Part shown: one piece after another, positions 2,567-58,372 of the stretch
Layout: each line of letters begins with the position of its first letter
How positions within the stretch are numbered: position 1 is the stretch's first letter
DNA from: Candidatus Omnitrophota bacterium
GTDB taxonomy: Bacteria; Omnitrophota; Gorgyraeia; Tantalellales; Tantalellaceae
Length of the DNA: 64,000 nucleotides
Assembly (NCBI GenBank): GCA_049642065.1
Contig: JBAROK010000099.1
Location: 85,661-149,660 of the forward strand
Direction: 5' to 3'
Made by a program: the position numbers and the translations under genes
Notes under the pieces: generated by a model
Database searches by the model: none
Seen by the model: only the letters and a program-made list of their open reading frames with translations
Told to the model about the DNA's origin: nothing

Positions 2567-4590
2567 TTTTTCCCCGTTTTCTTCTTGTATTTCGCCTGCT
2601 GATGAGCAGACTCCCTTTCGTCGTTGCTCAGCAATTTCTTCAGGCGATGAATCTGATCGCGATAGACTATTGCTTTTTCAAATTGCAGATTCCTCGCAGC
2701 TTCTTCCATCTCGCCTTCAAGCTGCGCAAGCACTTCAAGAATATCATATTCTTCTTCCGTCTCACCGGTAACATCTTGGACTATCTCTTTAGCCTGCCTG
2801 TAAGCCTCAATCCCGTCTTTTATAGCCTTTTTGATGGTCTTAGGCTCTATGCCATGTTCTTCGTTATATTTGATCTGTTTTTTTCTTCTCGCATCGGTAA
2901 CATCAATGGTCCTTTTCATCGAGCCTGTTATATTATCAGCATAAAGGATAACTTCACCATTAATGTTCCTGGCAGCCCTCCCAGCTACTTGTATCAAAGA
3001 CGTCTCGCTCCTAAGGAATCCTTCCTTATCGGCATCAAGTACCGCTACAAGAGATACCTCCGGTAGATCCAGCCCTTCTCTTAAAAGGTTTATCCCAACA
3101 AGGCAGTCGAATTTACCAAGACGCAGATCTCGTATAATGTCGATCCGGTCTAGTGCATTTATTTCAGAATGAAGGTACCGCACGCGCAGTTTCATCTCTT
3201 TTAAATAACGTGTAAGCTCTTCTGCCATACGTTTTGTAAGGGTGGTAACAAGCACCCTTTCTTTTTTATCGGCACGCCCCTTTATTTCTTCAACAAGATC
3301 ATATATCTGGTTCTTCGTGGGCCGTACGGTAATCGGTGGATCTATCAGCCCCGTCGGTCTAATGATCTGCTCGGCGATTACCGAACTTTTCGAAATCTCC
3401 AAATTCCCCGGGGTTGCCGATACAAAAAGCAGCTGTTTAACAATATCCATGAACTCCTCGTATTTAAGCGGCCGGTTATCCAGCGCAGAAGGCAACCGGA
3501 AACCGTATTCCACCAGCGTCTTCTTGCGCGCCTGATCACCGTTATACATAGCGTGCAGCTGCGGTAAAGTCACATGGGATTCGTCTATTATCACAAGAAA
3601 ATCTTTCCCCAAATAATCCAGAAGACACCACGGTCGGCTCCCAGGCTCTCTGCCGGAAATATGCCTTGAATAGTTCTCGATACCGTTACAGTACCCCAAC
3701 TCGCCCAACATATCCATATCGTATTTGGTTCTCGTCTCAAGCCGCTGCGCCTCCAAAAGCTTCCCATCATCCCTCAGTTCCGCAAGCCGCTCTTTAAGCT
3801 CTACAGCTATTGACCTTATAGCGGTTTTTATTTTGTCTTCGGTGGTAACGAAGTGTTTAGCGGGATATACCGCGACTTTATCCAGATCCGTAAGGATATC
3901 TCCGCTAACAACATGTATCTCCGATATACGTGTAACCTCGTCACCAAAAAATTCCACCCGATAAGCCGTTTCCTTGTACGCCGGAAGTATCTCCACGATA
4001 TCACCGCGTACCCTGAATTTGCCGCGCTGAAGTTCCACATTATTGCGTTCGTACTGGATATCAACCAGCTTTTTCAGAAACTCTTCCCTGTCTATCTCCT
4101 GCCCCTTTTCCAGGTTAACAAGCATAGTAGAATAATCTTCCGGAGAACCTAACCCGTATATGCAGGATACACTCGCAACGATAAGAACATCATTGCGCGA
4201 AAAAAGCGAACTCGTAGCAGATAACCGCAGACGGTCTATGTCATCGTTTATTGAAGCGTCTTTCTCAATATAAACGTCGGTTTGCGGGACATACGCTTCC
4301 GGCTGGTAATAATCGTAATAACTGACGAAATATTCAACCGCGTTATTGGGAAAAAACGCTTTGAATTCCGAGTAAAGTTGCGCTGCAAGAGTTTTATTAT
4401 GCGATAGAACAAGTGTGGGTTTATTGAGGTGTTCTACGATGTTCGCCATCGTGAACGTCTTGCCGCTACCGGTGACGCCAAGAAGCGTCTGGTAAGGATG
4501 TTGCTTCCTTATGGACGCAGCGATCTCTTCTATCGCCTGACCTTGATCTCCCGCGGGTTTCAGTTCAGTGACAAGTTGGAATTTATCCAT
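2563..4590 (-). CDS. uvrB: excinuclease ABC subunit B
   Basis: 675 aa; Walker [11 protein letters not shown], helicase motifs and C-terminal UvrB/UvrC interaction region. Confidence 0.95.
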
Positions 4591-14073: not shown

Positions 14074-15375
14074 CTATTCTTCCATACGTATAACAACCGT
14101 TTTATCCGAGACGAAATCCAGTCCGTCTATTTTTGCAATAGCTTTTTTCATCTTGCCCTCTTCAGCTTTATGGGTCAGGATTATTACGGGAACAGTCTCT
14201 CCTATGTTCCTCTCTTCCTGAGAAACATTAGCTATACTGATACCGTTTTCCGCAAGCACCGAAGATATCCCTGCAAGCACACCGGGTTTATCGATAACCG
14301 AGAACCTCAGATAATAAGATATTGCAAGATCTTCCATGGCCTGGATCTTCTTTTTTCCGGAAGCATAATCCAACGCGCACGGGGCCGGATCATCTTTCCC
14401 GTAGAACGCTACGTGTTTGGCGATCCCTACTATATCTCCCATAACCGAACTTGTAGTCGGCTTACGTCCAGCGCCCTGCCCAAAAAGAAGCGATTCTCCA
14501 AGAAGATCGCCCTTCACGAAAATAGCATTATCCACACCCCTAACATCTGAAAGCAGATGCGCAAGCGGCAGAAGAGTCGGGTGCACTCTAAGCTGAACTC
14601 CTTCGGGAGTATCTTTGGCGATAGCAAGAAGCTTAACGCCGTACCCCCATCTAAGAGCGTTTTCAAGATCCTGCGCCTCAATGTTGGTTATGCCTTCGGT
14701 ATAAACATCATCAGGCCGCACATCAAGGCCGAAACCCAAAAGCGCAAGCAACGCAAGCTTATGTGCGCTGTCTTTACCGCTTATGTCAAGCTCGGGATCT
14801 TTTTCAGCTATACCTTTCTCCTGGGCAACTTCAAGCGCTTCGCTAAAGGAACACTCGGTCGCTTCCATCATGCTAAGAATAAAGTTAGTGGTCCCGTTCA
14901 GTATCCCGTAAATGGTATCAATGTTATTAGCAACTAGGCTCTCCCGCAGGGTACTGATGATGGGAATAGCACCCCCCACGCTGGCCTCAAAATTAACAAT
15001 TACACCGTTCTCGCGAGCAGCAGTGAATATCTCTTTCCAATGTTCAGAAAGCAGCGCTTTGTTCGCAGTAACAACGTGTTTCTTGTTGCTGATAGCCTTA
15101 AGTATAATATCCTTCGCCGGGTTCACTCCTCCAATAAGCTCAACAATGATATCTATATCCGCATCATTGATAAGATCATCCGCTGAAGAAGTTATTATCT
15201 CCACCTTCTTCGGATCGATATCTTCCAATGCTTTTTTATCTTTATCGCATATACCTTTTATCTGGAGAGATACCCCGGTCCTTTCGGTGATAAGACCTCC
15301 GTTAGAAAGAACAGCGTCATATACACCTCTACCAATGGTCCCGACTCCTATCAGGCCTATCTTTACCGGCTTCAT
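14074..15375 (-). CDS. hom: homoserine dehydrogenase
   Basis: NAD-binding [11 protein letters not shown] and C-terminal ACT domain. Start taken at the internal Met ([10 protein letters not shown]); the longer ORF would run into the tRNA. Confidence 0.9.
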
Positions 15376-15399
15376 GCCAACTCCTTTATGCTTAAAAGA

Positions 15400-15477
15400 T
15401 GGTCGGGACGGCCGGATTCGAACCGGCGACCCCAAGTCCCCCAGACTTGTACGCTAACCAGACTGCGCTACGTCCCG
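15400..15477 (-). tRNA. tRNA-Pro (anticodon GGG)
   Basis: Manual cloverleaf: acceptor CGGGACG/CGTCCCG, D-stem GCGC/GCGT, anticodon stem CAAGT/ACTTG with loop CTGGGGG, T-arm GCCGG-TTCGAAT-CCGGC, discriminator A and encoded CCA. Confidence 0.8.
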
Positions 15478-44215: not shown

Positions 44216-47200
44216 TTACGCTCTTGAAGCTATATATTGGCGTATGTCTCTGTAAAGGCCTCTGTCTCCGGGAAGCTTGACCGCCCCGGGTATGAGTTTA
44301 ATGACCATTGTGGTCCTGTAGGTTTCTGTTACAGGGTCCCAACACCTTTGCCAGATGGCGTCATCATCCAGATTGAGACTGTTGCTTATGTTCCTGTAAC
44401 AGCGTATGAGGTTCTCCCTGTCATACTTGAGCGCGCGGGCAACCGTAAAGAGAACTATTTCTACTAACGGGTAATAAAAACCGTCCGTAAGTTCCTCATC
44501 ATCTATTCCGGTGATAGTTGAAGCGCCTTCAAACCCCTTGAAATACGCCTCGCGGTTCGTTTCGTTAGTGATTATTATGATGTTCTCCTTGCCTACATCG
44601 CCTCTATCTACAAGAGATTCCAAACCGCTCGAAAGAGAGTCGGCCTTGCCGTGGCGTATCACTACGTTACGCAGTAAATCGCTCAGCTGGTCATCCCCTA
44701 ACGCAAGATGGCTTAGCGCGTCCATTGTTTTGCGAAGCTGTTTTCGTGTCCAGCCAGAACCAAGTTCCTGGTCGATCGCTATAACTATTTTTTTGCCGTG
44801 ACCAGCTGTCATGAATCCATTCACCATTTCCGGTACCACGTGTTCCATCTTGCCCATTACGTCCGTACTGGGCAGCTCTTCGTAAGCGGGGCCGTCTGTA
44901 GCGGTAAACTCGTATTTCTTTTCATCAAGCTCCCAAAAACACGCACCGCCTTCGTCTTCAGCCAGCGTCTCCCATTCATAATCTGTATCATCAAAAACAA
45001 CGCTCTGCCATCCTTTTCTTTTGAACGGGAACTCATAATGTTCCCACAGGTTGACAGGCCTCAGTGATATCTTCATATTCCTGTATCTTCTTTCGATCCG
45101 GTCCTTATGCGAGGCGTAAAACAATTCTATCCCTAGGTCCTTAGCTGTATTGACCATACACCTCAGAGCGCTTTCTACCCATTTTCTGTGTCTCTCTCTG
45201 ACCTTACTATCGGTCATTTCCCTGTAACCCCTAGAAGCCTGCATTTCATCGAACACAATCGCCGGCCTTCTGTCTACAATCTCGAACTTGACCTCTATCT
45301 GGCCAAACGACCCTTCCGGACCGATAAACATCTGGGCCGCAGCCGCGTCAAGCACCCCAAGTTCCGGATGTTCTTCCCTGTAAGATGTTTCCGGAGCCAC
45401 AACAAAATTTTCAAAATCCTCGTCATATACAACAGTGGCATGTACTTTATGACCGCGAGCTATCCAGGAAATATCCTGTTTTTCACTAAAAACCTTAATA
45501 AACCGCGCTTCTATCTCTTCAATGTCCAGTCGCGATTTTTCTGTCCCCACCGGCTGGTCTGCTTCTAAAGATTCAACGAGAGCTTCTTCAGCATCTTCGT
45601 ATATATGTCTTTTTAGGTTCATGCGGACAGTCGTTCCACTGCCGGTTCCCGGTTGCGATGTGACTACGCCCTCTGGTATTCCATTAGCATCCCTTATCCC
45701 GTTGAACATGAGTTCCTTCCCTAAAGAAATTAAAGTAAGGCTGTCTTCATTGAGGTTTTTCAAAGGAATAGCAGCAACAAATATACCCCTGCCTCCGGGC
45801 AAGAAGAGACCTTCATCTTTGATATGTTTCATTTGCCTCATCATCCCACTGAGGTCGCATCCTATACCGTTATCTTTCGCAAAAAACTCTATAAGAATCT
45901 TGTCATCTTCACGTCGTGCCCTGCAAGCTATCACCCCAAAAACATCTCTCTCATTTTCGGCTATACCCTCCTTGGAATGCTCTATTATATTCAACGCGAA
46001 CTCTCCGAACGACTGCTTAAGCTCAAGAGCTTCATCAACCGAAAGGCCCATACCTGTTAGCCACTCGGTTACACTATACTGAAAAGCTATCAGCTTATCG
46101 GCCGGGGCATTAAGATGCTCCGCGTCTTTTATGCTTTGACCCATCAGGGCAATAGCTTTAATATCACTCTGTTCATTCACCTTAGCTAAGAGCTCTTCAG
46201 TCTTTTCGATAACTCCATATTCTACAGATTCTTCTAAATCACAGAACACGTCTTCCGAAAGTCCTACATCAAAATCTTCAGGAATCTCCTCAGGTTGAGG
46301 CCTGTTCCTGTAAATAAGCATACGTGTCTTTCCAAACCTTGCATCATCAACCATCTCCAGCCTGCTGAAAGGACCTCCCGGCATAGGACTATTAATAACA
46401 AACAGCGCTCCCGGCTTGAGTTCTCTTACCAACTTATCTTCAAGTCTTCTTTTCATCTCACGTTCCACATTCCTGTGATATAGCGGCCAGAATATGTACA
46501 CCAGATCGTACTGTGAAAAATCTTCATCAAAATAATTACCTTCCTCAAGCTCTACATTGCTCATATCCATCTTATCACTAAGATCACGTATACACGCTTC
46601 GCCTTCGGCATGTAAGGGTGCGTCCTGCTCTATACCTTTAACGTATCCGGCATACCTTGAGAAAATAGAAACAGCCTTGGCAGTCCCACTGCCAAGGTCA
46701 AGTGCACGTTTGTCTTCATCCAGGAATGCCTTTGCCACTAAGGCTATGTCTGGTGTCTTTGAAGAGGTAAAAATACCCCCTCTTGCTGTGGCTTTTGCCA
46801 CGGTGAGGGTTTTAGTGTTTTCCCCTGTCTGGTAATACCTGTCTATTAAACCAACGGCTTCATCGGGTGATCCCGGTACTTTTGAATGAGTAAGAACGTC
46901 TTTCAAGGTTACTCTTCCCAGTTTGGTGCCAGAAATGCCGCATATGATATGGCTTATAAAGGCTGGCACAAATGATTTTCTAAAGATCTTATTAAAAAAT
47001 CCGTCAATCACAGGATGCCTTCTGGCAAAGCCACGCACTCTCTTCCGGATCCAAACCTGTCTTGCAACTTCGTGAAGGATCGCGATTACAGCCAAAGCAC
47101 CAAGCACTACACCGATAGTGATACCGCTATCTGCAAAACCTAACCCTACTAATGAGTGTGCATAGGAAGTACGGCTCTCACCGGTATACGTAAGAGAACC

Positions 47201-50200
47201 CAAGTTCACATCCGGTATGTGGTCTACTACTGCAAACCCTTTATCCAAAGTATCAACGGTCATATCAATCTCTTCCTGCAATCCTGCTAAGAGAGCCCCT
47301 CTGTGACCACTCGGATGAGATATAGTCCTTATCATCTCTACCTCTATCTCTATCATCTTCTTGTGATTCGCAAGGATCCGCTCAAGAAACTTTATATTCG
47401 GTATAAACTCAATATAATCTTTTGCGAAGTTCATATACCCGATTGTCCTTACCCATTCGCGCGTACTTGTTAGCCTGTTCCGTAACCAATCAAGGATCTT
47501 TGCCGGATCAGACTCGGCATGGATCCTGTTATTCTCATCTTCCATTTCCAGGATCTCTCTACTAAGCTTTGACATCCGGCCGGTAATATCTTCTACCTTG
47601 ACTTTATCTTCACCCGCATTACCAAGCTCTACTCTCAAGGATCTGAGTTTATTGTGCGCAAAACCTGTCTCAATGTTACATCTCTCTACAGCCTGTGCTA
47701 ACAATAAATCCCTTTCTCCAAAAAGACGGAGAATCCTCGCAGCCAGTGCAGACATGTTCTCCGGATCCACCTCTATTAATTTCTCGAACGCTTCTTTTGT
47801 GATATATATATCACTTGTATCAACCTCTACATGCGTATCCTGCCCTGTCGAAAAGACAGGCGACTTAACATCACAGATGAATATACCTTTCTCTCCAGCC
47901 CGATAGTCCTTATCCGCGGAAAAGTTATCGAGTCTATTAGCTACAGTTTCGATAAACATGCGCTTCTCAACTGCTTTTGTCTTACTGGAATCATACGAAT
48001 CCCTGTGGGTATGAGCTTCTGCATACTGCCTCTCCATCTTCTGATATATATCTCTGAGGGTTTGGACCTGAGCATCCCTCATCTTTCGGAAGCTGCCAAG
48101 ATAATCTCCCCATAATGTTGAAAGCATCTTGGCATGCCCTTTCTTATATATTGTTTCATTTATTCCTATTTCTTTTCTGACTGTGTTAATAGCTCTCTGT
48201 ACAGTAAGCAGTTTTATCACCATCGCAGAATCAAGGTACCTGGCGGCACCCTTAGCGTTTCTGCTCTGCACGAATCCGTGCATATCATCCGTCACTAACT
48301 TTAAATGACGTTCTATTGCCACCCTTGATACTTCGACCACTCTAGCGTTAGCGTTATCTTCCCTGGCACCAAAAAGCCACCACATCATGACATTAATATT
48401 CTTCAAAATAACGTTTTCACGGGGATCAAGAGTATGCGTCTGCGAATACGTGTTGAGTTGTTCGAGACATTTCGCCATCCTGTAAACGTTCTCAAGGAAC
48501 ATGTCCAGCGACGCTTCGTCTATCCTGACTGTATCGACATTCTGAGTAAACTGAAGCATATGTTCGTAAGCTTCTTCTCCTGCGATTACTGTTGTATTAG
48601 ACCTAGAAAAAGATGATGGGTCACCTTGACTGCCAGCATCGTTAAGTAAATTTATTTCGGCCGCAATAGCATCCATCTTTGTCTTAATAGCGAAAATCTG
48701 CTTAGAAATACCCTGCATAGCGTTAAGATAAGTAGTTTCTTCCTCGCGTATCCTCATCGATTCTTTTCTCAGGTAAGATACCATGCTCCTTAACACGTTC
48801 TTGCCAAGCTTCTGTTCGGCGCCCTTAAGATGTGTGGTCTTTTTCTTGCTAAGACGTTTTATTTCTGCATCCAGTTTTTCGTGTTCACCCATAATGTCCA
48901 GATACCCCGGCATGGTACCAGCGGACCGCTTGGATCTACCCCCGAACAGGCTACCAACATCTTCACCTCTTCCGATACGAGATATACCCCGCATTCTTGT
49001 ATCCAGAGTTACTCCCACACCCGTCGCTTCTACCGCCCGGTTATGAGCTTCCGTCCAATGCATAGACGGGTTCAACCTCCTCTCTTGGACTTCTTTTAGC
49101 TCATGACTTATAACATCTTTATTCAGTTCAGACTGGAACCCTACTATCCTCCATATACCGTCAGAGCCTTTAAAATTTATCGCACTTACTCCGCCTTCGG
49201 GTTTTATTACCCGTCTGCGGACGGTCCTTGCCACCCTCATGATCGAGACGGCTAACTTTTCATCCACCGTAGTCTTATCGATATAATCAACTGTTTCATC
49301 CTTAATAGTAACTATCCAGGTCCCATCCTTAAATTCTCTCTCCGTAAGACCACGCTTGTCGAGATACCTTAGCCAGGCTTCTACAACATCCCCGCTAAAC
49401 GCCATACCTTTTTTATCCCTGAGTATACTAAGAATACTTTCTAAACGGTTAAACGCGCTTATATCGGAAACTTCTGCGCCAAGATCTTTTTCTGATGGGC
49501 CCTCTTCCGCCTTCGGTTCGGTTTCAACAGGACTACTTGAAGGTTCTTCAGGTTTTCTGTATATCGTTAATCTCCTTACATCTGGTACCGTAAATGGCGG
49601 TTCCACCTCTTCAAGCTCCGAAAATTTTTCGGTATCCGTGGCGCTTATTATCACAAAATGAGCTCCGGGCTTAAGTTCTTCTAAGAGTTTTTCCTGCAAT
49701 CTATCTTTTACATAATCCCTGTATTTGTCTTCACCGTATTCCGGCCAAAAAATATAAATAAGATCGTATTTTGAGAGGTCTTCATCAATAAGGCTACCGT
49801 AATACAGTTCTATCTTTCCGTTATCCACGATATCAGCAAGATCTACAACACAACTCTCACTTTCCGCGAGAAGACTAAGATCGTTTTCCACCCCCTTAAC
49901 ATGTCCGGCATACCGGGAGAATACCGCTACAGCTTTACCTGTGCCGCTACCCATATCAAGCGCGCTCTTATTCTCATCCAACAGCCACTCTGACAATAGC
50001 TTGAGATGCCCAGTGGGAGAAGCTATGAAATGTCCGTCACCTACGGTATGTTTATATCCAGTCACTCTCCCTGCTCCTTCACCTTCATCGTAATACCTGC
50101 CAATGTGCGCTACAGCTTCATCTTGAGAAAGCTTGCCTGAAATATCCTCCATCCCCACAGTCCGGCTGATAACATCATAAGACCTTTCCCTGGGAGATCC

Positions 50201-53200
50201 GTTCCAATGCCTGTATATCCATTCGCGGAGTATCCATATGCGTTCTTTAGTGCTCTTTATTGTTTCGGGAGGGAGTCCCGGAGTCAAACCCACCAGCATA
50301 TTCGTGTATATATCGTTCATGGTGGCTTTTGCACCGTTAAAAGCGGTTACTTTTCTCAAGTCCTTGCGAAACCAGTTGATTCCGGGATAATGCGACAGGA
50401 ATCTTTTCGCAAGATCATCCATTGAAAGTGCCGAATTTTCCTTAACGAACCCTTCTTCCCAGTCTTCTTCAAATATTCCCGGCCATTTCACAGGATTAAG
50501 CGCTTCGCCGATCAGCTGCCTGTATCTCTCCGCCATGTCACCTGTTAGCTTCCGCTGGGCTACGGTATCAATGTACTCTTTCCACATTTCGCGCCAATAT
50601 ATGTCAAGACGCGCAACGTCCGTAAGGTTCTCTACCTGGGGCGGAACTGACGCAACCTTTAAAAGCTCTCCCTCTTGTTCTTCGTTCAACCCTGCATCCT
50701 TTGACAAGGCGCTTAAGAACCTCCTCCAATGCACGCTTGAAAGTGCGTCTAAGCTGGTAAACCCTTTCAAATCATATTCAAGTAAAATTTCATACACATT
50801 AGCGTATTTCTTTTTCTTTTTCTCGATGGCTTTCGTAAGATCAGGTATACTGTCCGCTTCGATCATTCTTACCAAGTCAAGCATCGCCGGGAATAACGGA
50901 CTATCGATCTTTTTGGAGGGTTTCGCAGGATCAGGCATATTCATACTTACATACGCGGCAAGATAAAACGTTGTCCATAGAAGGCGTGGCGATCCCCTTC
51001 CTATATTATTATCGCGCGCAAATTTTAGATACCGGTTAAAGTCTTCGGTAAATATCCTGTCATAATACGCTTCAGCTTTTCCCTGAAGTCTTGCGTCCAC
51101 ATACTTCTCTCTTAATCCATCCATAAAGGAATCCAGAAGCACCATTGACCTAACTCTTTCTTTCATTATTCCGATATTTCTTCTTACAGTGTTTTCCTTG
51201 CCAGCAGTATCAATATTGTTTATAGCCTGCCATAACACGGGAAGCATGCGGTGGAATTCAGGTTCGCTTTTAATATCGTTATCACGGGTCATGCCCATCA
51301 TCCAGTCGCGTGCTTTCTGCCTGTTACCCGCCTCGAACATCTCGAGTATTCTATCCAGTTTCCATATAGTCCTGCTGTTGCGCGCACGTACGTACTCACG
51401 CAATATAGCAAGCCGGCCGGTTCTTATCTTATCTATCTGTTTAGTAAGCGAAAAATGACGTCTTCTGAGGAGGCTCCTTGCGGCCATCATCTCTTCCAGC
51501 ATGCTGCGATATTCGCCCAGATCCAATAGTTCCAGCGCGAATTCACAAGCGGTATGAGTAATAACCTTCTCCTCCACCTGGGCTCTTTTTAATGACTCTG
51601 TTATCTCTGAAAGCAATACCCTCATGCATTCTTTTTCTTCATCAGATACTTCCGGCTGCGGAAGAGGTTCTCCTGTTTTAGCAGAAGGAAGAGTTCTCCT
51701 CCTCTGGTCAAGAATATCTATATATTCCTTCATTCTCTTGCCGATACTAAGCACCCAGTCCCGTTCCCTGAGTATATTATCGATCTCCCTATCACATGAG
51801 CGTATACCCTGCCAGATAGTCTCAGATCTATGAGGTATCCATTCTTTTATAAGCACGTCCCTATCAGCGCTTATTCCATGGCTTATATACTGCCCGCGAA
51901 GCACATTATGGAGTTTATCTTCAACATCTTTCCAAACCCTTGGCCCACGCATTTTGACCTTCGTTTTGGACAGCTGTAGAAGCTCTTCTGCGAACCTCTG
52001 TTTAGCAGCACGAAGCAAAGCCGAGGCAGCAGGCTCGTTCTTCTTTTCCATCATTTCAATAGCCCTGCGCATTTTATCCTTGGCTTCTGCGCGATAATCC
52101 CTGTCCCCGGTACGCTTAAGCTCATAATCAGGCGGGGTTATAAGTTCTTCTTCCAGAGTTATCTCAGTTTTAAGAACCTGTATCCTTTGCTGGCATTTTT
52201 CAAGCTGTTCTTTCTTATCCGCGTTCTCTGGATCCTGTTTTAATTCTTTTTCCAGGGTAACCCTTTCAGCACCCAGACGTATAAGACGAAGGTTCATCTT
52301 CGGAAGAGCTCTGAGATAATAATAGGTAAGATCCTCCCCTTCAGCAAAGACTTGGCTGTCTAATTTCGCTTTTACCCATACCAGTTCTTCCTCGCTGGGC
52401 CTCGGTGAAAGCAAATCAAGAACTTTCCTTATCGAATCCAAATGCTTGCCAGCCCTGCGGTATCTTTCAGTGAGGGTAAATTCTATAGGTTCAAAAGGCT
52501 CTGAAGGCCTACCTGCGTTCAATATGCCCAGAGCTACCATACCGTCAAGTTCTGATTTTATCGTCCTGTAAGAAAAAGGGTTCCCATCTTCATTCAGTCT
52601 GCACGGTCCGAATGTAATGCTGGTGAAAACTGATTCCCTGAAGTCCTTGTTAGCCATTACTGTATTAAATCCATCAAGGACATTTCCCGAAGCCGGACGC
52701 CTTTTCTTCTTCTTTGCCATGCTCTCCGGCATCTCGGAATCCTCTTCTTCCGATTCTTCCTTTTCTTCCCGTCTGGTGCGATGTCCATGTCTTAACAAAA
52801 GAAGCACTGTAACCAGAAGCAGATATGGTATCAGTGTCCCAAAAATAGAATTAGAGGACATTTTGCCATCTGCCATACTGCAACTACCGCCTGAACGGCC
52901 TTCATCGGGAGACTGCCCTGCTGATATCGTTACAGGTGTTGAATAATCGCTGTCCCTTTGCGGGTCAGGCACTTCAGTGCGTATGCTAAGGTTATAAGTT
53001 CCCGAATAGATATGATCAGGAAGGTCTATGACGGCTGAGAAAGTTCCCGCACCTGCGATATAGAAAGTCTCCCCTCCTATATTAATGGTGTAACCTGTCA
53101 CAGATCCGGCCAATGCGCCCGTATACGGCTGCCAGGTAACTGTAAAGGTCCTGCTTCCGTTGCTGTCGGTCACACTCACTAAGTCTGGCGGGAACGGTCT

Positions 53201-56200
53201 TTGCGCTGCCGAATCGTACCAGTGCCTTATCGTATCGGCCTGAGGGTCTGTTATGGTAAAACCTGTAGTATCCTGCCAGAAGAGTCCACCACCATCAACG
53301 GCACTCCCATAGATATCGTCCAGTTTTCCTGAAACACCGGTCGGTTCAAGTTCCCCGAAAAAGAATCCAAAACTCGTTAGCCCGGAACCCCAGGTCGATA
53401 TATCATCCGTAAGAGGATACCACGGCACCATATAATCATAATAATGCGCCTGGTCAATATCCTGGCCAAGTCCTGTCCAGTTATCAAGAAGTATCTGCCG
53501 GCTCTGGGCCCCTATAGTAACTCGAGACCCGGAATCTTCCGCGTGTATCATATTAATGAAATCGGTTATAAAGATCTGTACCTGCGCGACGGTCAGGGAA
53601 GTAGAAGTGGTTATTTCTATAGGCTCGTTTAAAACGTCCCACATCTCTATCTCAGGACGTCCCGCATAACGCTGGATAAACGGCCTTATGACGTTGATCA
53701 AAGCGGCTCGCTTAGCATTATCTGTTATAAGATCCGGATATTCGCCTACCGGATTAGGCCCTTCCATGTTGATATTATCGGCTATCATGTAATCGAGTAC
53801 TACAGGGATAAGTCTTATTCCCAGAACCTGCGCCGCTTCCACAAGAGCATCCATATCGTCAAACACGTGTGTGCTTAGACCCGTAGGAGTTCCGCCACCA
53901 TCAAAAGTAACACCGCTTCTTAAGTCACAGAAAATAAATACACGTACCGCAGAGCCCTTGAACCTGTTGAGCTGCTGCAAAAGCTGCGCCCTTTTCGTGT
54001 TCAGCCCTTCGTATGTCTCACCGTTAACGCCGTCACCAATGTCGTACCCATACTTTAACCATGGCAGGTTAGCCCCGCGATAGAATTTCCAGCCCGGAGT
54101 TAATTCTTCCACTACTTCCTGTATATAATCATGCCTATCCTGCCTGCCGTCAGGATGATAAGCCATCATCTCCGTAAGATTCCAGGACCCGTCGTACTCA
54201 TAAGTACGTATAGTCCCATCAGTATCCCTTTCGGCGTTTACATACTGGTTACCCGAATCAAGATGATACGAAGCTCCCGCGCCACTGGTATAAGTTTTAA
54301 TAGCAAAAGTAGCACTTATCGTTTCGTAAACGAAAACCGGACTTCCTCCGGAGGTGTATCCTCTTATGTAATGTATGTTATCAGTTCCCGTGTAATATTC
54401 GTATTCCTCATAACTCCCGTCAGGATGCGTTTTCCTGTCAGGCCTTCCGTAATCGTCTGAAAGGTTGACGGGCGTACCGTTATCATAAAAAGCTTCATCT
54501 ATCCTATGAACAACGGTTCCCGCAGGCACATCGTCCGAAGGATCTGCCGGTGTATCACCATCCCAGTCATCTAGGTACGTTTCAGTTTCGATATATCCTG
54601 ACGGTGAATGATAAGTGTACGAAAGGTTCGCCGGCGCCGCAAAAGCCGTAAATGGTAAAAGCAATAAGACAAGTATAGAAAGAAGAGTATTCGGGAATAT
54701 ACGGTCTATACGGCTTTTTCTTTGTTTCGGCGTATCGGTCTCCCTCGCCCCCAACCCTTTTATCATGATCAGAATATGATAGATCTCCCACATCTTTTCG
54801 ACTTCGAAATATTCGAAATTCATGTTGCCAAGCTTTTTATGAAGAAGCCTGGCAACCTTAAGAAAGTTTACCTCTTTACCGCTGTCCAGAGCTTTCTTGA
54901 CCGTTAGGCCCTTCTCCAATTCTATGGTGTTCCATGGCACTCTACCGTCGGGTTCCGTGATAGTAAAGGTTCGGTACCCATCTTTCAACAAAAGACTGAT
55001 ATTAACACTTACCACTCCGAGCTTTTCTACAAGGTCTGGATAGAACGTATACGCAACTGCTTTATCCAGGAATATCTCCATACCCGGAGTATTAAAAAGT
55101 TCGTTCTTTTTAAGTTCATCACGCAACCTTTTATTTTTAGCTTTTTTCTCACGGGCTTCGCGCCACTCTTTCATGATGTTAGCTATACTTGCTTTTTTCT
55201 CACGAATATTATTCTTGCACCTTGCCAGAGTATCCGCTGCGAACTGCCGGATCCATATGACCAAACCCAACGGAGAATACCATAGAGCCACTCCCAGATT
55301 CCTTACTCTTACATCTACCTTGACCCGGTTTTTACCCGCTTTCCAACCGTAAACATGGATACCAGGCGCTATATGCTTGTAATACCCCCGGCTATCTTTC
55401 TTTATATCGTGATTAAGCCCTACTCTCCGGTGATCACCCTCGGGCAATAGCAGATACTTCTTCCATTCTTTTCTGGCCGTAACTATAGACATTAGCAGCT
55501 TTGCGTTCTTTACAGGTATGGCTACCACTAAAGCAATAATGACTCTACCTATTCCCCTCACGAGTATTATGGGAAGATACAATAGTTGGGCAAGGAATTT
55601 GAAAAATACCGTTTCTGTTCTAGCTTTTCCGTTCGCATCTTTTGACACCTCTACTACTACACCTCTGGCAATACTCACGAAATGGTTATACCCCTGGTAC
55701 CGGGCATTGTATCCGGCCTTCTCCTCCAACTTTCTACGTTCTTCCGGATCCTTTTCAAGAAGATATTTTTTGAGGAATATCTTCGCCTTGAGGATCTTCA
55801 CACACAGGTTCAGGTTCAGAAGAGCTATAATGCCAGCTCCTACTGTCAGGAACGCAGTGAACCCGCTGACCTCGGCAGGGAAAAACGGTACTGTTCCGTA
55901 CGCATAATTCCGCGGGTTGGGTCCACCACCTTTCGAATCCCAGAGCACTTTCTCAATATAAGTTTTCGTATCGAAAACTGATTGAGGGTCAATTTCATCG
56001 CCTAAGTTATAGAGAACGGTCCTTATAATCTCTATCCTGTCCTGCGGCAAGGTGTAAAACCTGTCATCCAGCTGGTATACCGGTGGTTTCATGCGCGAAG
56101 CAGTTGCACAAAGAACTCCCATCTTTCCCAGGAGTTCAAGCATATAAACCACCGTTCCCATCCCGAACTCTGACTGTCTTGCTTGCATAAATTCGGCTAC

Positions 56201-58372
56201 AGTAAAAGAATTCCTGCTCAAGATATCATCCGCCATCACAGCATCGAACACTTTAAGGATGTTGTTTCTTCTATCTACGAACTCCTGCGGAGGCTGCTCC
56301 TGGGCCGGGCTTACAATAGTTGGACCTTCTTGGGGTTTTATCAGAACGGGTTCTAGTGTACGTTTAGGTTGCGCTTGCGGCTTATTTGCCGGCTGCACCG
56401 GTTTCCTTACTATGCCTTGCTTAAGTTTTTCATCGATCATCCTCTCCCACAGAGGTTTCGCTTCTGTTTCCAGCCTAGCGCGTTCCCGTTTAGCATCTTC
56501 ATCGGAAAAATCCCTTATAGCCACCAGAAGCAAGTAAAGCTCTTCAGCATCAGCCGGTTTTGGATCCAATACGTTTACTGAAGCAGCCAGAGCACTGAGC
56601 ATCTTGTAAAGGCCCAAAAGATCATTGGGTTCCTTGTGCAGTAATACTGTTCCCAGCCTCTTCTTATCGCTTCCTACCTTCAGTGAATCAAGCGCCTTTG
56701 CCTGCGGCACCTTTATAAAATTATATCCATCATCCTGCACACGGCACATTTCCATACAAGCGCTGCGAAGATGTGTCATGACCGTGGAAACGGATTTTGT
56801 GCTAAGCCCCTGGGTAGCCCCTACTCTTGCTACCAGGTCTTTAAAATTCATATTCGAGAGCAACAATGTATCTTCCAGCATAGCCGTCAGCTGTTTTTCT
56901 CTCTCTGCTTTAACCTTCTTTTTCTTAAGTGCAAGCAATATCCTGACGGGAAAATATATAAAAAACATCCTGCGGCCTAAATACAAAGTTTCTGTACGTC
57001 CGGTCTTACTAAATCCTCTTGGAGTAAATACCCTGACGCCCCTGGTAATTACTATCGATAACCTGCCTTCTTTGGGCTGGATATTCCATTTAAACATCAG
57101 CTTTTTCTTTTTCTCCGCGTCCTCTTCAGCCATGTATTTTGAAAGGCGACCTTTAGCCCGGTATATCTTTACTAGGACCTTTACGTTATCAATAAGAAGT
57201 ATCGTCAGTATAAATGCCGGGATAAGAAGCCATGGGCTTATATTTGCCACTAAGGACATTGGGAGAACGGCTGGCGCGACAGAAAGGTCGGTATCGTCTT
57301 CATCCTCATCTGCTCCACCTTCTCTAGCTTTTCTTGTAAAAATATAATCGTATCCTGCTATGAGATCATATTGTTTCTGTTGTTTTATACTTGTCCTTGC
57401 CTCGAAAACAGCCCTTGAGTGAGAAGATTGTCTTAAAAACGCTATCCTGTCCTCTTCCTTTTCGACCCTGGTTCTCACGCTAACAACGGATCTTTGCATA
57501 TCTTCATAAACATATCCGCCGAGACCCGCGTTCATTTTCATTAATTCGTTGAGAGAGTACTGGAGATTAAGACCTTCAAACACTATTATCTGAACGCCCT
57601 TCCTGTGAGGCGTCCAAAGATCTCGACTGAGCCTAGGAATATTTATAGTCCGATCCGGCTTAACGTAATTGTCGATCGATATCACCTTACACGAGCTTAT
57701 TTTGTCCTTTATCCCTCGTGCAACAATAGTGGTCTTTCCCGAGCCCGGATTTCCATCAATAAGCACCATGACTTTTTTGCCGGAGCCAGTTACATCCTGT
57801 ATGCGGGTGATTATCGGATCGATCGTATCCGTTTTAACATCGCGTTGCAGTTTTTTAGCTTTTTTCTTTATGGGCGCAGGAGAAGCTTCCTTCTCCTCTT
57901 TCTTTAAAAGCTGGCAGCTCAGATAATCGTTTATGGTCTTTTCCCATGCCACTTTCGTAATACCATCAGGCAAAACTAGTCCCGTCATGCGTGGGTTAAA
58001 ATATCTCAGAACACAATCATCCGATATGCGGACAAATACCTGCCCTTCCTCGGCGCCACCTTCCACGCGGATACTCGGCTGGTCTAATTGTTCGGAAGCG
58101 ATCTTGCGGATACGATCCAGCATCTCTTGCACTCCGGCAAGCGGCATATTCCTGAAATCCTTTGACATTACCAGTTCCAGATATTTAGCCGTAGCCCTGG
58201 CTATAGAGTCTGAAGTATCGTCTGAAGTTAAGAGTGTCTGTTGTGCAAGAGTATTTACTGAAGGTCTTGAGGAAGGATATGCCCATGCAAAATCGTAGGA
58301 AATAAAGCATATAAGCGTTATTACCGCGACTACACGAAACAGTATTCTTTGTCTGGTCCTCTCCAAAAACAT
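44216..58372 (-). CDS. giant (4718 aa) multidomain polytopic membrane protein
   Basis: Single uninterrupted 14,157-nt ORF on the minus strand. Domains in order: N-terminal signal-anchor TM; uridine-kinase/PRK-like P-loop (Walker A GNPGSGKTT); several TM helices; extracytoplasmic segment with YD-repeat-like motifs, a clan GH-A (GH5 mannanase-like) core (RGANLPW, WDVLNEP, HYY, GELEP) and a beta-rich Ig/FN3-like region; long helical cytoplasmic regions; two duplicated PCMT-like SAM-methyltransferase modules (IASPTGH...LDMGSGTGKAV and LDLGSGTAKAV); a GHKL ATPase-like module (DNGIG, GGRGIF). Confidence 0.85.
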   Translation of the reverse strand: MFLERTRQRILFRVVAVITLICFISYDFAWAYPSSRPSVNTLAQQTLLTSDDTSDSIARATAKYLELVMSKDFRNMPLAGVQEMLDRIRKIASEQLDQPSIRVEGGAEEGQVFVRISDDCVLRYFNPRMTGLVLPDGITKVAWEKTINDYLSCQLLKKEEKEASPAPIKKKAKKLQRDVKTDTIDPIITRIQDVTGSGKKVMVLIDGNPGSGKTTIVARGIKDKISSCKVISIDNYVKPDRTINIPRLSRDLWTPHRKGVQIIVFEGLNLQYSLNELMKMNAGLGGYVYEDMQRSVVSVRTRVEKEEDRIAFLRQSSHSRAVFEARTSIKQQKQYDLIAGYDYIFTRKAREGGADEDEDDTDLSVAPAVLPMSLVANISPWLLIPAFILTILLIDNVKVLVKIYRAKGRLSKYMAEEDAEKKKKLMFKWNIQPKEGRLSIVITRGVRVFTPRGFSKTGRTETLYLGRRMFFIYFPVRILLALKKKKVKAEREKQLTAMLEDTLLLSNMNFKDLVARVGATQGLSTKSVSTVMTHLRSACMEMCRVQDDGYNFIKVPQAKALDSLKVGSDKKRLGTVLLHKEPNDLLGLYKMLSALAASVNVLDPKPADAEELYLLLVAIRDFSDEDAKRERARLETEAKPLWERMIDEKLKQGIVRKPVQPANKPQAQPKRTLEPVLIKPQEGPTIVSPAQEQPPQEFVDRRNNILKVFDAVMADDILSRNSFTVAEFMQARQSEFGMGTVVYMLELLGKMGVLCATASRMKPPVYQLDDRFYTLPQDRIEIIRTVLYNLGDEIDPQSVFDTKTYIEKVLWDSKGGGPNPRNYAYGTVPFFPAEVSGFTAFLTVGAGIIALLNLNLCVKILKAKIFLKKYLLEKDPEERRKLEEKAGYNARYQGYNHFVSIARGVVVEVSKDANGKARTETVFFKFLAQLLYLPIILVRGIGRVIIALVVAIPVKNAKLLMSIVTARKEWKKYLLLPEGDHRRVGLNHDIKKDSRGYYKHIAPGIHVYGWKAGKNRVKVDVRVRNLGVALWYSPLGLVIWIRQFAADTLARCKNNIREKKASIANIMKEWREAREKKAKNKRLRDELKKNELFNTPGMEIFLDKAVAYTFYPDLVEKLGVVSVNISLLLKDGYRTFTITEPDGRVPWNTIELEKGLTVKKALDSGKEVNFLKVARLLHKKLGNMNFEYFEVEKMWEIYHILIMIKGLGARETDTPKQRKSRIDRIFPNTLLSILVLLLLPFTAFAAPANLSYTYHSPSGYIETETYLDDWDGDTPADPSDDVPAGTVVHRIDEAFYDNGTPVNLSDDYGRPDRKTHPDGSYEEYEYYTGTDNIHYIRGYTSGGSPVFVYETISATFAIKTYTSGAGASYHLDSGNQYVNAERDTDGTIRTYEYDGSWNLTEMMAYHPDGRQDRHDYIQEVVEELTPGWKFYRGANLPWLKYGYDIGDGVNGETYEGLNTKRAQLLQQLNRFKGSAVRVFIFCDLRSGVTFDGGGTPTGLSTHVFDDMDALVEAAQVLGIRLIPVVLDYMIADNINMEGPNPVGEYPDLITDNAKRAALINVIRPFIQRYAGRPEIEMWDVLNEPIEITTSTSLTVAQVQIFITDFINMIHAEDSGSRVTIGAQSRQILLDNWTGLGQDIDQAHYYDYMVPWYPLTDDISTWGSGLTSFGFFFGELEPTGVSGKLDDIYGSAVDGGGLFWQDTTGFTITDPQADTIRHWYDSAAQRPFPPDLVSVTDSNGSRTFTVTWQPYTGALAGSVTGYTINIGGETFYIAGAGTFSAVIDLPDHIYSGTYNLSIRTEVPDPQRDSDYSTPVTISAGQSPDEGRSGGSCSMADGKMSSNSIFGTLIPYLLLVTVLLLLRHGHRTRREEKEESEEEDSEMPESMAKKKKRRPASGNVLDGFNTVMANKDFRESVFTSITFGPCRLNEDGNPFSYRTIKSELDGMVALGILNAGRPSEPFEPIEFTLTERYRRAGKHLDSIRKVLDLLSPRPSEEELVWVKAKLDSQVFAEGEDLTYYYLRALPKMNLRLIRLGAERVTLEKELKQDPENADKKEQLEKCQQRIQVLKTEITLEEELITPPDYELKRTGDRDYRAEAKDKMRRAIEMMEKKNEPAASALLRAAKQRFAEELLQLSKTKVKMRGPRVWKDVEDKLHNVLRGQYISHGISADRDVLIKEWIPHRSETIWQGIRSCDREIDNILRERDWVLSIGKRMKEYIDILDQRRRTLPSAKTGEPLPQPEVSDEEKECMRVLLSEITESLKRAQVEEKVITHTACEFALELLDLGEYRSMLEEMMAARSLLRRRHFSLTKQIDKIRTGRLAILREYVRARNSRTIWKLDRILEMFEAGNRQKARDWMMGMTRDNDIKSEPEFHRMLPVLWQAINNIDTAGKENTVRRNIGIMKERVRSMVLLDSFMDGLREKYVDARLQGKAEAYYDRIFTEDFNRYLKFARDNNIGRGSPRLLWTTFYLAAYVSMNMPDPAKPSKKIDSPLFPAMLDLVRMIEADSIPDLTKAIEKKKKKYANVYEILLEYDLKGFTSLDALSSVHWRRFLSALSKDAGLNEEQEGELLKVASVPPQVENLTDVARLDIYWREMWKEYIDTVAQRKLTGDMAERYRQLIGEALNPVKWPGIFEEDWEEGFVKENSALSMDDLAKRFLSHYPGINWFRKDLRKVTAFNGAKATMNDIYTNMLVGLTPGLPPETIKSTKERIWILREWIYRHWNGSPRERSYDVISRTVGMEDISGKLSQDEAVAHIGRYYDEGEGAGRVTGYKHTVGDGHFIASPTGHLKLLSEWLLDENKSALDMGSGTGKAVAVFSRYAGHVKGVENDLSLLAESESCVVDLADIVDNGKIELYYGSLIDEDLSKYDLIYIFWPEYGEDKYRDYVKDRLQEKLLEELKPGAHFVIISATDTEKFSELEEVEPPFTVPDVRRLTIYRKPEEPSSSPVETEPKAEEGPSEKDLGAEVSDISAFNRLESILSILRDKKGMAFSGDVVEAWLRYLDKRGLTEREFKDGTWIVTIKDETVDYIDKTTVDEKLAVSIMRVARTVRRRVIKPEGGVSAINFKGSDGIWRIVGFQSELNKDVISHELKEVQERRLNPSMHWTEAHNRAVEATGVGVTLDTRMRGISRIGRGEDVGSLFGGRSKRSAGTMPGYLDIMGEHEKLDAEIKRLSKKKTTHLKGAEQKLGKNVLRSMVSYLRKESMRIREEETTYLNAMQGISKQIFAIKTKMDAIAAEINLLNDAGSQGDPSSFSRSNTTVIAGEEAYEHMLQFTQNVDTVRIDEASLDMFLENVYRMAKCLEQLNTYSQTHTLDPRENVILKNINVMMWWLFGAREDNANARVVEVSRVAIERHLKLVTDDMHGFVQSRNAKGAARYLDSAMVIKLLTVQRAINTVRKEIGINETIYKKGHAKMLSTLWGDYLGSFRKMRDAQVQTLRDIYQKMERQYAEAHTHRDSYDSSKTKAVEKRMFIETVANRLDNFSADKDYRAGEKGIFICDVKSPVFSTGQDTHVEVDTSDIYITKEAFEKLIEVDPENMSALAARILRLFGERDLLLAQAVERCNIETGFAHNKLRSLRVELGNAGEDKVKVEDITGRMSKLSREILEMEDENNRIHAESDPAKILDWLRNRLTSTREWVRTIGYMNFAKDYIEFIPNIKFLERILANHKKMIEIEVEMIRTISHPSGHRGALLAGLQEEIDMTVDTLDKGFAVVDHIPDVNLGSLTYTGESRTSYAHSLVGLGFADSGITIGVVLGALAVIAILHEVARQVWIRKRVRGFARRHPVIDGFFNKIFRKSFVPAFISHIICGISGTKLGRVTLKDVLTHSKVPGSPDEAVGLIDRYYQTGENTKTLTVAKATARGGIFTSSKTPDIALVAKAFLDEDKRALDLGSGTAKAVSIFSRYAGYVKGIEQDAPLHAEGEACIRDLSDKMDMSNVELEEGNYFDEDFSQYDLVYIFWPLYHRNVEREMKRRLEDKLVRELKPGALFVINSPMPGGPFSRLEMVDDARFGKTRMLIYRNRPQPEEIPEDFDVGLSEDVFCDLEESVEYGVIEKTEELLAKVNEQSDIKAIALMGQSIKDAEHLNAPADKLIAFQYSVTEWLTGMGLSVDEALELKQSFGEFALNIIEHSKEGIAENERDVFGVIACRARREDDKILIEFFAKDNGIGCDLSGMMRQMKHIKDEGLFLPGGRGIFVAAIPLKNLNEDSLTLISLGKELMFNGIRDANGIPEGVVTSQPGTGSGTTVRMNLKRHIYEDAEEALVESLEADQPVGTEKSRLDIEEIEARFIKVFSEKQDISWIARGHKVHATVVYDEDFENFVVAPETSYREEHPELGVLDAAAAQMFIGPEGSFGQIEVKFEIVDRRPAIVFDEMQASRGYREMTDSKVRERHRKWVESALRCMVNTAKDLGIELFYASHKDRIERRYRNMKISLRPVNLWEHYEFPFKRKGWQSVVFDDTDYEWETLAEDEGGACFWELDEKKYEFTATDGPAYEELPSTDVMGKMEHVVPEMVNGFMTAGHGKKIVIAIDQELGSGWTRKQLRKTMDALSHLALGDDQLSDLLRNVVIRHGKADSLSSGLESLVDRGDVGKENIIIITNETNREAYFKGFEGASTITGIDDEELTDGFYYPLVEIVLFTVARALKYDRENLIRCYRNISNSLNLDDDAIWQRCWDPVTETYRTTMVIKLIPGAVKLPGDRGLYRDIRQYIASRA

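Follow-up and report, generated by a model that had tools for sequence, protein, structure and literature searches.

The window analysed here is a 64,000-nucleotide stretch of contig JBAROK010000099.1 from a Candidatus Omnitrophota bacterium, and the subject of this report is a giant gene carried on its minus strand. The product of this open reading frame (ORF) is a 100% match to P0001, recorded at NCBI as 'MAG: hypothetical protein WBD00_07825 [Candidatus Omnitrophota bacterium]' (MAG, metagenome-assembled genome); it is a multi-pass membrane, multi-domain mosaic protein, in which a hydropathy scan finds at least seven hydrophobic segments. The reading that we regard as probable is that of two paralogous class I methyltransferase domains, dependent on S-adenosylmethionine (SAM), contained in a giant mosaic protein that is anchored in the membrane of an Omnitrophota bacterium. 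The features on which it is built are the following, residue n of the protein lying at nucleotide 58372-3(n-1) of the window:

Window 44216-58372, minus strand: the giant ORF, 4,718 residues, single and uninterrupted (ORF list and translation).
Window 49529-50128, minus strand: methyltransferase copy 1, residues 2749-2948, a class I SAM-dependent methyltransferase domain (BLASTP, self-scan, PF01135, motifs).
Window 46280-46870, minus strand: methyltransferase copy 2, residues 3835-4031, a paralogue of copy 1 (BLASTP, self-scan, AlphaFold2 (AF2) model, motifs).

A first-pass annotation of this DNA, whose conversion of residues to nucleotides in the giant ORF was correct, had proposed an internal duplication of a methyltransferase module, about 1090 residues apart. 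Two comparisons bear this out. By BLASTP the two copies share 49% identity and 63% positives over ~196 residues, and this pairwise alignment is highly significant (E 2e-58); the self-comparison of the giant protein, made with 200-residue chunks and the query region masked, finds the same pair, 2749-2948 and 3835-4031, with E 7e-45 and 2e-41 per 200-residue chunk. The offset between the copies is 1,086 residues. The shared motifs that had been listed, namely DEAV..I.RYY, LD.GSGT.KAV..FSRYAG.VKG.E.D, YDL.YIFWP, ELKPGA.FVI.S and a final ..IYR, are each present in both copies, with the main elements placed as follows:

N-terminal helix: DEAVAHIGRYY, residues 2751-2761 (copy 1); DEAVGLIDRYY, residues 3837-3847 (copy 2).
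Pre-motif: GHFIASP, residues 2780-2786 (copy 1); GIFTSSK, residues 3866-3872 (copy 2).
Motif I: LDMGSGTGK, residues 2805-2813 (copy 1); LDLGSGTAK, residues 3891-3899 (copy 2).
Acidic motif II: VKGVEND, residues 2825-2831 (copy 1); VKGIEQD, residues 3911-3917 (copy 2).
YDL motif: YDLIYIFWP, residues 2869-2877 (copy 1); YDLVYIFWP, residues 3955-3963 (copy 2).
ELKPGA motif: ELKPGAHFVI, residues 2899-2908 (copy 1); ELKPGALFVI, residues 3984-3993 (copy 2).

The SAM-binding set, formed by the pre-motif Ser, LDxGSG, the acidic residue ending strand 2 and GD/NxF.EDF, is complete in both copies, and both modules are class I (Rossmann-fold) SAM-dependent methyltransferase domains. The AF2 model of copy 2, built on an alignment of six orthologous and paralogous modules, displays a seven-strand alternating alpha/beta fold, with a predicted local distance difference test score (pLDDT) of 78.8 and a predicted template modelling score (pTM) of 0.80.

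The two copies belong to a wider family, which was collected by an exhaustive HMMER search with a six-module profile against 1.84 billion cluster representatives; matches were obtained in 207 proteins at E<1e-3, in 58 at E<1e-10 and in 16 at E<1e-30. Most of them are found in proteins of 1,000-6,500 residues, several having two matches, and all four of the large family proteins that carry an organism name come from Candidatus Omnitrophota/Omnitrophica; stand-alone members of ~300 residues also exist, for instance P0018, encoded on a contig of 120 kb, and P0042, from a Spirochaetales MAG. An alignment of 40 family members (A2) gives the consensus I..YY / G.F..S / vLDlGSG.GKAVA.FS..A..V.G.EID..L / GDFF.EDFS.YDLIYIYWP / KLL.ELKPGA.FV, with at least 90% conservation of S51, G74, G76, G93, E95, L100, D136, W142 and K160. 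The glycines of motif I, on whose conservation the first-pass annotation had staked its assignment, reach the same level across the 40 members. The domain is a distinct, uncurated methyltransferase subfamily, of which a large protein often has two or more copies. As a side observation, a gene for a B12-binding radical SAM protein stands directly upstream of the stand-alone methyltransferase at the P0042 locus (L006), and another is one gene off, past a 1,410-residue unknown protein, at the P0018 locus (L003/L005); this association, seen on two unrelated contigs, is weak and may be due to chance or provide a functional lead.

The giant gene is flanked by housekeeping genes, in the order SMC, GAF-GGDEF, giant gene, CinA, LigT, RecA, RecX, AlaRS and his genes. 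Two orthologues, P0002 (5,404 residues, from the Joint Genome Institute (JGI); 88% identical to the window protein) and P0003 (4,986 residues, from Ca. Omnitrophica; 54% identical), are encoded in the same gene order (loci L002 and L001, respectively), and the overall ratio of non-synonymous to synonymous substitution rates (dN/dS) between the window gene and P0002 is 0.20. The giant gene is a real, conserved chromosomal gene, neither a mis-assembly nor a read-through. The sole tRNA of the window, a tRNA-Pro (GGG) at 15400-15477 on the minus strand, overlaps by a few bases of its 3′ part a mechanical ORF at 14074-15435.

The two-copy layout is found, besides the window protein, in P0002, P0003 and P0010, which come from three other assemblies, and its presence in independent assemblies indicates that it is not an assembly artefact. 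The spacing of the copies is similar in all four proteins, P0002 having an insertion of ~690 residues between them and the P0010 copies being 1,058 residues apart. At the DNA level the window copies share 64% identity over 240 nt, which, together with the layout, also rules out a recent duplication. A neighbour-joining tree that carries no support values groups the copy-1 sequences of three proteins (window, P0002 and P0003) in one cluster and the copy-2 sequences of these three in another, and places both P0010 modules outside the two clusters. These data show an old duplication, which occurred before at least four orthologue lineages separated. The regions of ~750-800 residues upstream of each copy have no detectable homology to each other (hhalign E 0.79); the duplicated unit is thus the methyltransferase domain alone, of ~200 residues, and a larger unit including the helical region is ruled out by the same comparison.

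The remainder of the giant protein is composed of further domains, of which these could be delimited:

Window 52850-54628, minus strand: extracytoplasmic loop, residues 1249-1841, with a GH5 beta-mannanase-like and an Ig/FN3-like domain, between two strong transmembrane (TM) helices.
Window 47057-47140, minus strand: hydrophobic membrane segment, residues 3745-3772, ~60 residues upstream of copy 2 (hydropathy scan).
Window 45623-46096, minus strand: putative GHKL (HATPase_c_2-like) module, residues 4093-4250 (PF13581, motifs).
Window 57893-58372, minus strand: N-terminal cap, residues 1-160 (phmmer against the collected homologues).
Window 44219-44935, minus strand: C-terminal cap, residues 4480-4718 (phmmer against the collected homologues).

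The GH5 domain resembles beta-1,4-mannanases, the best of its matches in the Protein Data Bank (PDB) being 3vup (E 1.7e-8; 3vup, 4oou and 2c0h span E 1.7e-8 to 9e-6), and has a catalytic-type motif, WDVLNEP, at residues 1578-1584; it is followed by an Ig_RIMBP2-like Pfam match, and this loop is the best-conserved part between distant orthologues (dN 0.15 against P0003). A P-loop kinase-like segment is located at residues ~194-240, and the protein also comprises long helical regions without a family match.

Several side observations concern the mosaic structure of the protein. The two caps, which have no Pfam match, are common to the otherwise unrelated giant proteins P0004, P0024, P0028, P0035 and P0137, and the C-terminal one also to P0013 and P0015; the middles of these proteins hold completely different enzyme domains, and both ends have the appearance of conserved 'caps' in a mosaic superfamily. 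A Sec-type signal peptide with an AxA site is suggested by the N-terminal sequence ...FISYDFAWA|YP. Against P0002, residues 2950-3740 (window 47153-49525, minus strand) have dS 1.68 and dN 0.27, while elsewhere in the gene dS ranges over 0.07-0.44 (mostly ~0.2) and dN over 0.005-0.04; this suggests that an internal block was replaced by recombination and that the gene is a mosaic. The ~690-residue insertion of P0002 lies just before the TM helix. A weaker internal repeat relates residues 375-482 to 835-948 (30% identity, E 3e-9; region window 55529-57250) and consists of a TM helix, a basic helix and a second hydrophobic stretch, with a possible third copy near residues 963-1040; a winged-helix-like repeat relates 703-787 to 1896-1985 (E 0.004).

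As for the membrane topology, the GH5-like loop clearly has an in-to-out helix (residues 1230-1248) on one side and an out-to-in helix (residues 1842-1860) on the other, and this would place residues 1861-3740, including copy 1, in the cytoplasm. The TM-like helix that had been noticed ahead of copy 2 corresponds to the hydrophobic segment 3745-3772, which is present at the equivalent place in P0002, P0003 and P0010 and is followed by a basic stretch, RKRVRGFARRH, with six Lys or Arg in 15 residues. SAM- and ATP-dependent domains are expected to be cytoplasmic. Similar parity conflicts to the one described below for this segment are seen at residues 376-401 and 834-858, and the P-loop domain sits between the signal-peptide-like start and the next TM helix.

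In the interpretation that we favour, each methyltransferase domain would be one enzymatic bead, working independently, on a string of enzymes tethered to the membrane, with the P-loop kinase-like domain, the GH5 mannanase-like ecto-domain and the GHKL ATPase as further beads; the methyltransferase domains would, as independent beads, be neither isoaspartate-repair enzymes nor one half of a dedicated methyltransferase-kinase signalling pair. Four sets of observations weigh against this interpretation. First, the flanks of the segment 3745-3772 both look cytoplasmic when judged by the positive-inside rule, which clashes with a single span; a genuine single span would put copy 2 and the GHKL module across the membrane from copy 1, on a side where SAM and ATP are possibly lacking. 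The segment may be a hairpin or a peripheral anchor rather than a single span. Second, modules of other giant proteins are interleaved between the copy-1 and copy-2 clades of the neighbour-joining tree, and the two copies may derive from two separate acquisitions of family modules by domain shuffling; however, in the family comparison the window copies are 46% alike, against at most 42% for any cross-protein pair of modules, and this favours an intragenic duplication. Third, SAM binding and catalysis are predicted from motifs and from a medium-confidence model based on a six-sequence alignment. Fourth, in P0039 a family methyltransferase is followed, after a linker of ~87 residues and with similar spacing, by an HATPase_c domain scoring 47 bits, so that a coupling of the two activities is possible.

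This last point concerns the region that follows copy 2, where the first-pass annotation recognized a GHKL ATPase-like module. Its boxes are:

N box, EFALNIIEHS: residues 4124-4133.
G1 box, DNGIG: residues 4167-4171.
G2 box, GGRGIF: residues 4193-4198.
G3 box, GTGSGTTV: residues 4242-4249.

The four boxes have the right order and spacing and are invariant in three orthologues; the three motifs originally cited (EFALNIIEHS, DNGIG and GGRGIF) are present, but the family assignment stays under threshold, as PF13581, the sole Pfam match to the excised segment, reaches 22.5 bits (E 1.2e-4) against a cutoff of 27.4, and 18.8 bits in the whole-protein scan. A PDB profile search with the segment gave nothing better than E 0.19, and the pLDDT of its AF2 model, 51.9, is too low for fold comparison. 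Judged from its sequence motifs, the segment 4093-4250 is a probable GHKL ATP-binding domain.

The same annotation went on to suggest a methylation-plus-kinase/ATPase signalling unit, in which copy 2 and the GHKL module would form a dedicated, TM-anchored cassette similar to CheR/CheA or to an anti-sigma kinase. The order of TM segment, methyltransferase and GHKL module is indeed kept in the window protein, P0002 and P0003, P0039 has independently a methyltransferase and then an HATPase_c domain, methyltransferase and HATPase Pfam families co-occur statistically in Omnitrophota long proteins ('Module 1'), and a GAF-GGDEF gene adjoins the giant gene. However, P0010 keeps the TM-methyltransferase part and the C-terminal domains and has an unrelated, non-GHKL region of 338 residues in the GHKL position; a Pfam scan of the downstream flanks of 23 other family modules found an HATPase within 300 residues in one case, P0039, and this domain shares with the window GHKL segment no homology detectable by hhalign beyond the fold (E 0.11). 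Considering also the sub-threshold score and low-confidence model of the segment, and that Pfam scans detect no STAS, HisKA, receiver or MCP-like partner domain in the giant protein, such a cassette is unlikely and the suggestion is not upheld. As a separate observation, P0003 (L001) has an extra HATPase_c-type module, at residues ~1990-2170 after a third winged-helix-like segment, which is not present in the window protein.

The functional state of the two copies was considered separately. Purifying selection acts on both, as the dN/dS between the window gene and P0002 amounts to 0.175 in copy 1 and to 0.092 in copy 2. No SAM-binding motif of copy 1 is missing from the window protein, P0002 or P0010; in P0003 this copy has LAVNTRDGK in place of LDxGSGTxK and has lost the Asp after motif II. 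The P0003 copy 1 is 33-36% identical to its window counterpart, and the P0003 copy 2 is 57% identical to its own; the dN of P0003 copy 1 is 0.59, the highest of any region, against 0.33. Both window copies are predicted to bind SAM and to transfer methyl groups. Copy 2 is probably the catalytic core and the more constrained of the two; copy 1 is probably active here, but the loss of its glycine loop from one orthologue suggests that it is partly dispensable, or degenerating, in at least one lineage.

A different view of these data is that copy 1 is a catalytically dead pseudo-enzyme, and that it serves copy 2, the active one, as a scaffold or partner, in the manner of METTL3/METTL14 or Trm61/Trm6. 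The disappearance of the GxGxG loop and of the acidic Asp from the P0003 copy, the faster evolution of copy 1 compared with copy 2, and the presence of TrmI/Trm61-type methyltransferases among the structural neighbours would fit this view. Its weak side is the state of copy 1 itself, with intact motifs in three of the four proteins and a constrained dN/dS, along with the 1,086 residues and the hydrophobic segment separating it from its presumed partner; for the window protein we hold it to be quite unlikely.

As regards the family to which the domain belongs, the first-pass annotation had pointed to PCMT, that is, to protein-L-isoaspartate O-methyltransferase (PIMT), and this resemblance stands in part. 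PF01135 (PCMT) is the top Pfam match of the whole giant protein (32.2 bits summed) and of copy 1, where it passes its cutoff (26.3 bits against 20.3); it remains under the cutoff for copy 2 (16.7 bits), and the match to copy 1 is confined to the generic SAM-binding half of the profile, positions 53-121 of 210. For copy 2, Methyltransf_11, Methyltransf_25, PCMT and Methyltransf_31 all score 16-18 bits, under their thresholds. None of the equivalog models for PIMT comes near its cutoff: NCBIfam TIGR00080 gives 18.5 bits against 159, PRK00312 16.1 against 188 and PRK13942 14.9 against 282. Among the 40 family members, Methyltransf_25 matches 16, PCMT 14, Methyltransf_23 12, RrnaAD 9 and DOT1 5 (PCMT and DOT1 counted at E<0.01). 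'ELKPGA.FV' and 'YDxIx', which had been cited in favour of PCMT, are generic class I motifs.

Comparison with solved structures widens the choice. The family profile matches bacterial DOT1L (9ne1, E 1.3e-7) and phosphoethanolamine methyltransferase (PMT, 9e-7) better than Thermotoga maritima PIMT (1.5e-6), which is followed by aKMT (5fa8, a SAM complex, 4.2e-6), 5jwj (3.1e-5) and 5bxy (1.3e-4). A Foldseek search with the copy 2 model lists aKMT, 5BXY and many DOT1L entries first and PIMT chains at ranks 29 and 35, all matches being inside a narrow E-value band; PIMT is not the nearest structural neighbour of copy 2 in this search. On the other hand, Pfam DOT1 (PF08123) matches neither copy at E<=0.1, and the sequence after strand 4 is IFWP in the window copies and IYWP in the family, at the place where the DOT1 catalytic motif reads VNNFAF. 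In the profile alignments, the invariant Ser of the family pairs in T. maritima PIMT with the second Ser of TSSQP, the isoaspartyl-binding position, and equally well in aKMT with the Thr of the YVPT motif X; it cannot, for this reason, discriminate between the two, and could be a cofactor contact instead of an isoaspartate contact. The residues around it in the window copies (FIASPT, FTSSKT) do not match the PIMT motif.

We read the domain as an uncurated subfamily among the DOT1, aKMT and PIMT-type methyltransferases, and not as a PIMT. By analogy, its nearest solved relatives (DOT1/LpDot1, archaeal aKMT, PIMT, PrmA-like) lean to a protein side chain as acceptor; RNA and small-molecule methyltransferases are structurally about as close to it as protein methyltransferases. 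A more far-reaching proposal unites several of these elements: a new DOT1/aKMT-like clade of protein methyltransferases specific to Omnitrophota giant proteins, acting in cis on the giant protein or on surface or cytoplasmic proteins of a prey or host, with an active/regulatory pair of domains and copy 2 coupled to GHKL. Taken as a whole, we find it very doubtful. If true, it would describe a self-contained, methylation-based control unit inside a predatory or episymbiotic effector.

Finally, that the modules are genuine PCMT/PIMT enzymes for the repair of aspartyl damage, perhaps in the giant protein, itself long-lived, is highly improbable in spite of the PF01135 score, the 14 matching family members, the aligned Ser and the automatic annotation of P0002 as PIMT by JGI, given the partial profile match, the equivalog scores, the more numerous matches to Methyltransf_25, the stronger DOT1L and PMT profile matches and a Ser that fits aKMT equally well.

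What emerges from the analysis is of interest mainly for the subfamily. The duplication itself adds little, since repeated methyltransferase and HATPase modules are already documented in Omnitrophota giant proteins. The signature motifs I..YY, G.F..S and YDLIYIYWP, on the other hand, define a subfamily whose profile could annotate dark regions of giant proteins and could correct automatic 'PIMT' labels, which are unreliable on such proteins. P0003, having lost the cofactor loop of copy 1, offers a natural contrast between an active and a degenerate state, and a handle on which copy is essential. Moreover, a syntenically stable giant protein of 4.7 kaa (thousand residues) is far more tractable for domain-wise expression than examples of 30-150 kaa.

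In comparison with known systems, the methyltransferase domain shares with PIMT the class I fold, a similar pre-motif Ser, motif I and the acidic motif II, where copy 1 exceeds the Pfam gathering score; it differs in that the C-terminal half of the PIMT profile, the post-motif-III region, is unmatched, and PIMT has neither the YDLIYIYWP motif nor the I..YY N-terminal helix of the family. The DOT1-like enzymes (PF08123; human DOT1L 1NW3; bacterial 9NE1) provide the best profile match among solved structures, over the region DLGSGxGKAV ... GvE ... GDFl..d.s...lI; however, the domain is without the N-terminal helical domain of DOT1. The bacterial structure 9NE1 is probably Legionella LpDot1 (bioRxiv 10.64898/2026.01.11.698932). 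With aKMT and PrmA-like methyltransferases (5FA8/5FAD, 5JWJ) and with 5BXY the likeness includes the pre-motif, in which F..S aligns with Y-V-P-T of aKMT, although identity is 19-24% and these are minimal proteins of ~155-160 residues, which have neither the I..YY helix nor the YWP motif. The Salinibacter protein 5BXY, labelled 'RNA methyltransferase', is uncharacterised. The segment after copy 2 resembles HATPase_c_2 (PF13581), the family of the RsbW/SpoIIAB-type anti-sigma Ser kinases, in the order and spacing of its N, G1, G2 and G3 boxes, and differs from it, besides the score, by having neither a STAS partner nor a sigma-factor context.

The closest parallel for the protein as a whole is given by the giant mosaic proteins of Omnitrophota. 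Methyltransferases and SAM-dependent methylases are consistent constituents of the 'Archaeovorin'-type giant proteins, and a domain of one Omnitrophota giant protein structurally matches PDB 5BXY (West-Roberts et al. 2023, bioRxiv 10.1101/2023.11.21.568195); PF08241 methyltransferase (137 proteins) and PF02518 HATPase (136) head one co-occurrence module, and a domain occurs repeatedly in 65% of the Pfam-positive Omnitrophota long proteins, mostly because of duplications that are old and diverged (Nielsen & Lui 2026, bioRxiv 10.64898/2026.06.07.730766). Repeated methyltransferase modules, called unusual in the first-pass annotation, are in this light commonplace: the duplication is confirmed and is typical for Omnitrophota giant proteins. 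This subfamily, its motifs and the conserved two-copy arrangement are described in neither of the two studies. The window protein resembles those giants in its Omnitrophota origin, TM anchoring, multi-kiloresidue length and repeated domains, and in its set of domains, namely a glycoside hydrolase, methyltransferases, an HATPase and a P-loop; it differs in size, with 4,718 residues against at least 30,000 in West-Roberts et al. (2023) and at least 10,000 in the catalogue of Nielsen & Lui (2026). The window protein has the architecture of an Omnitrophota giant protein, at the small end of the size range.

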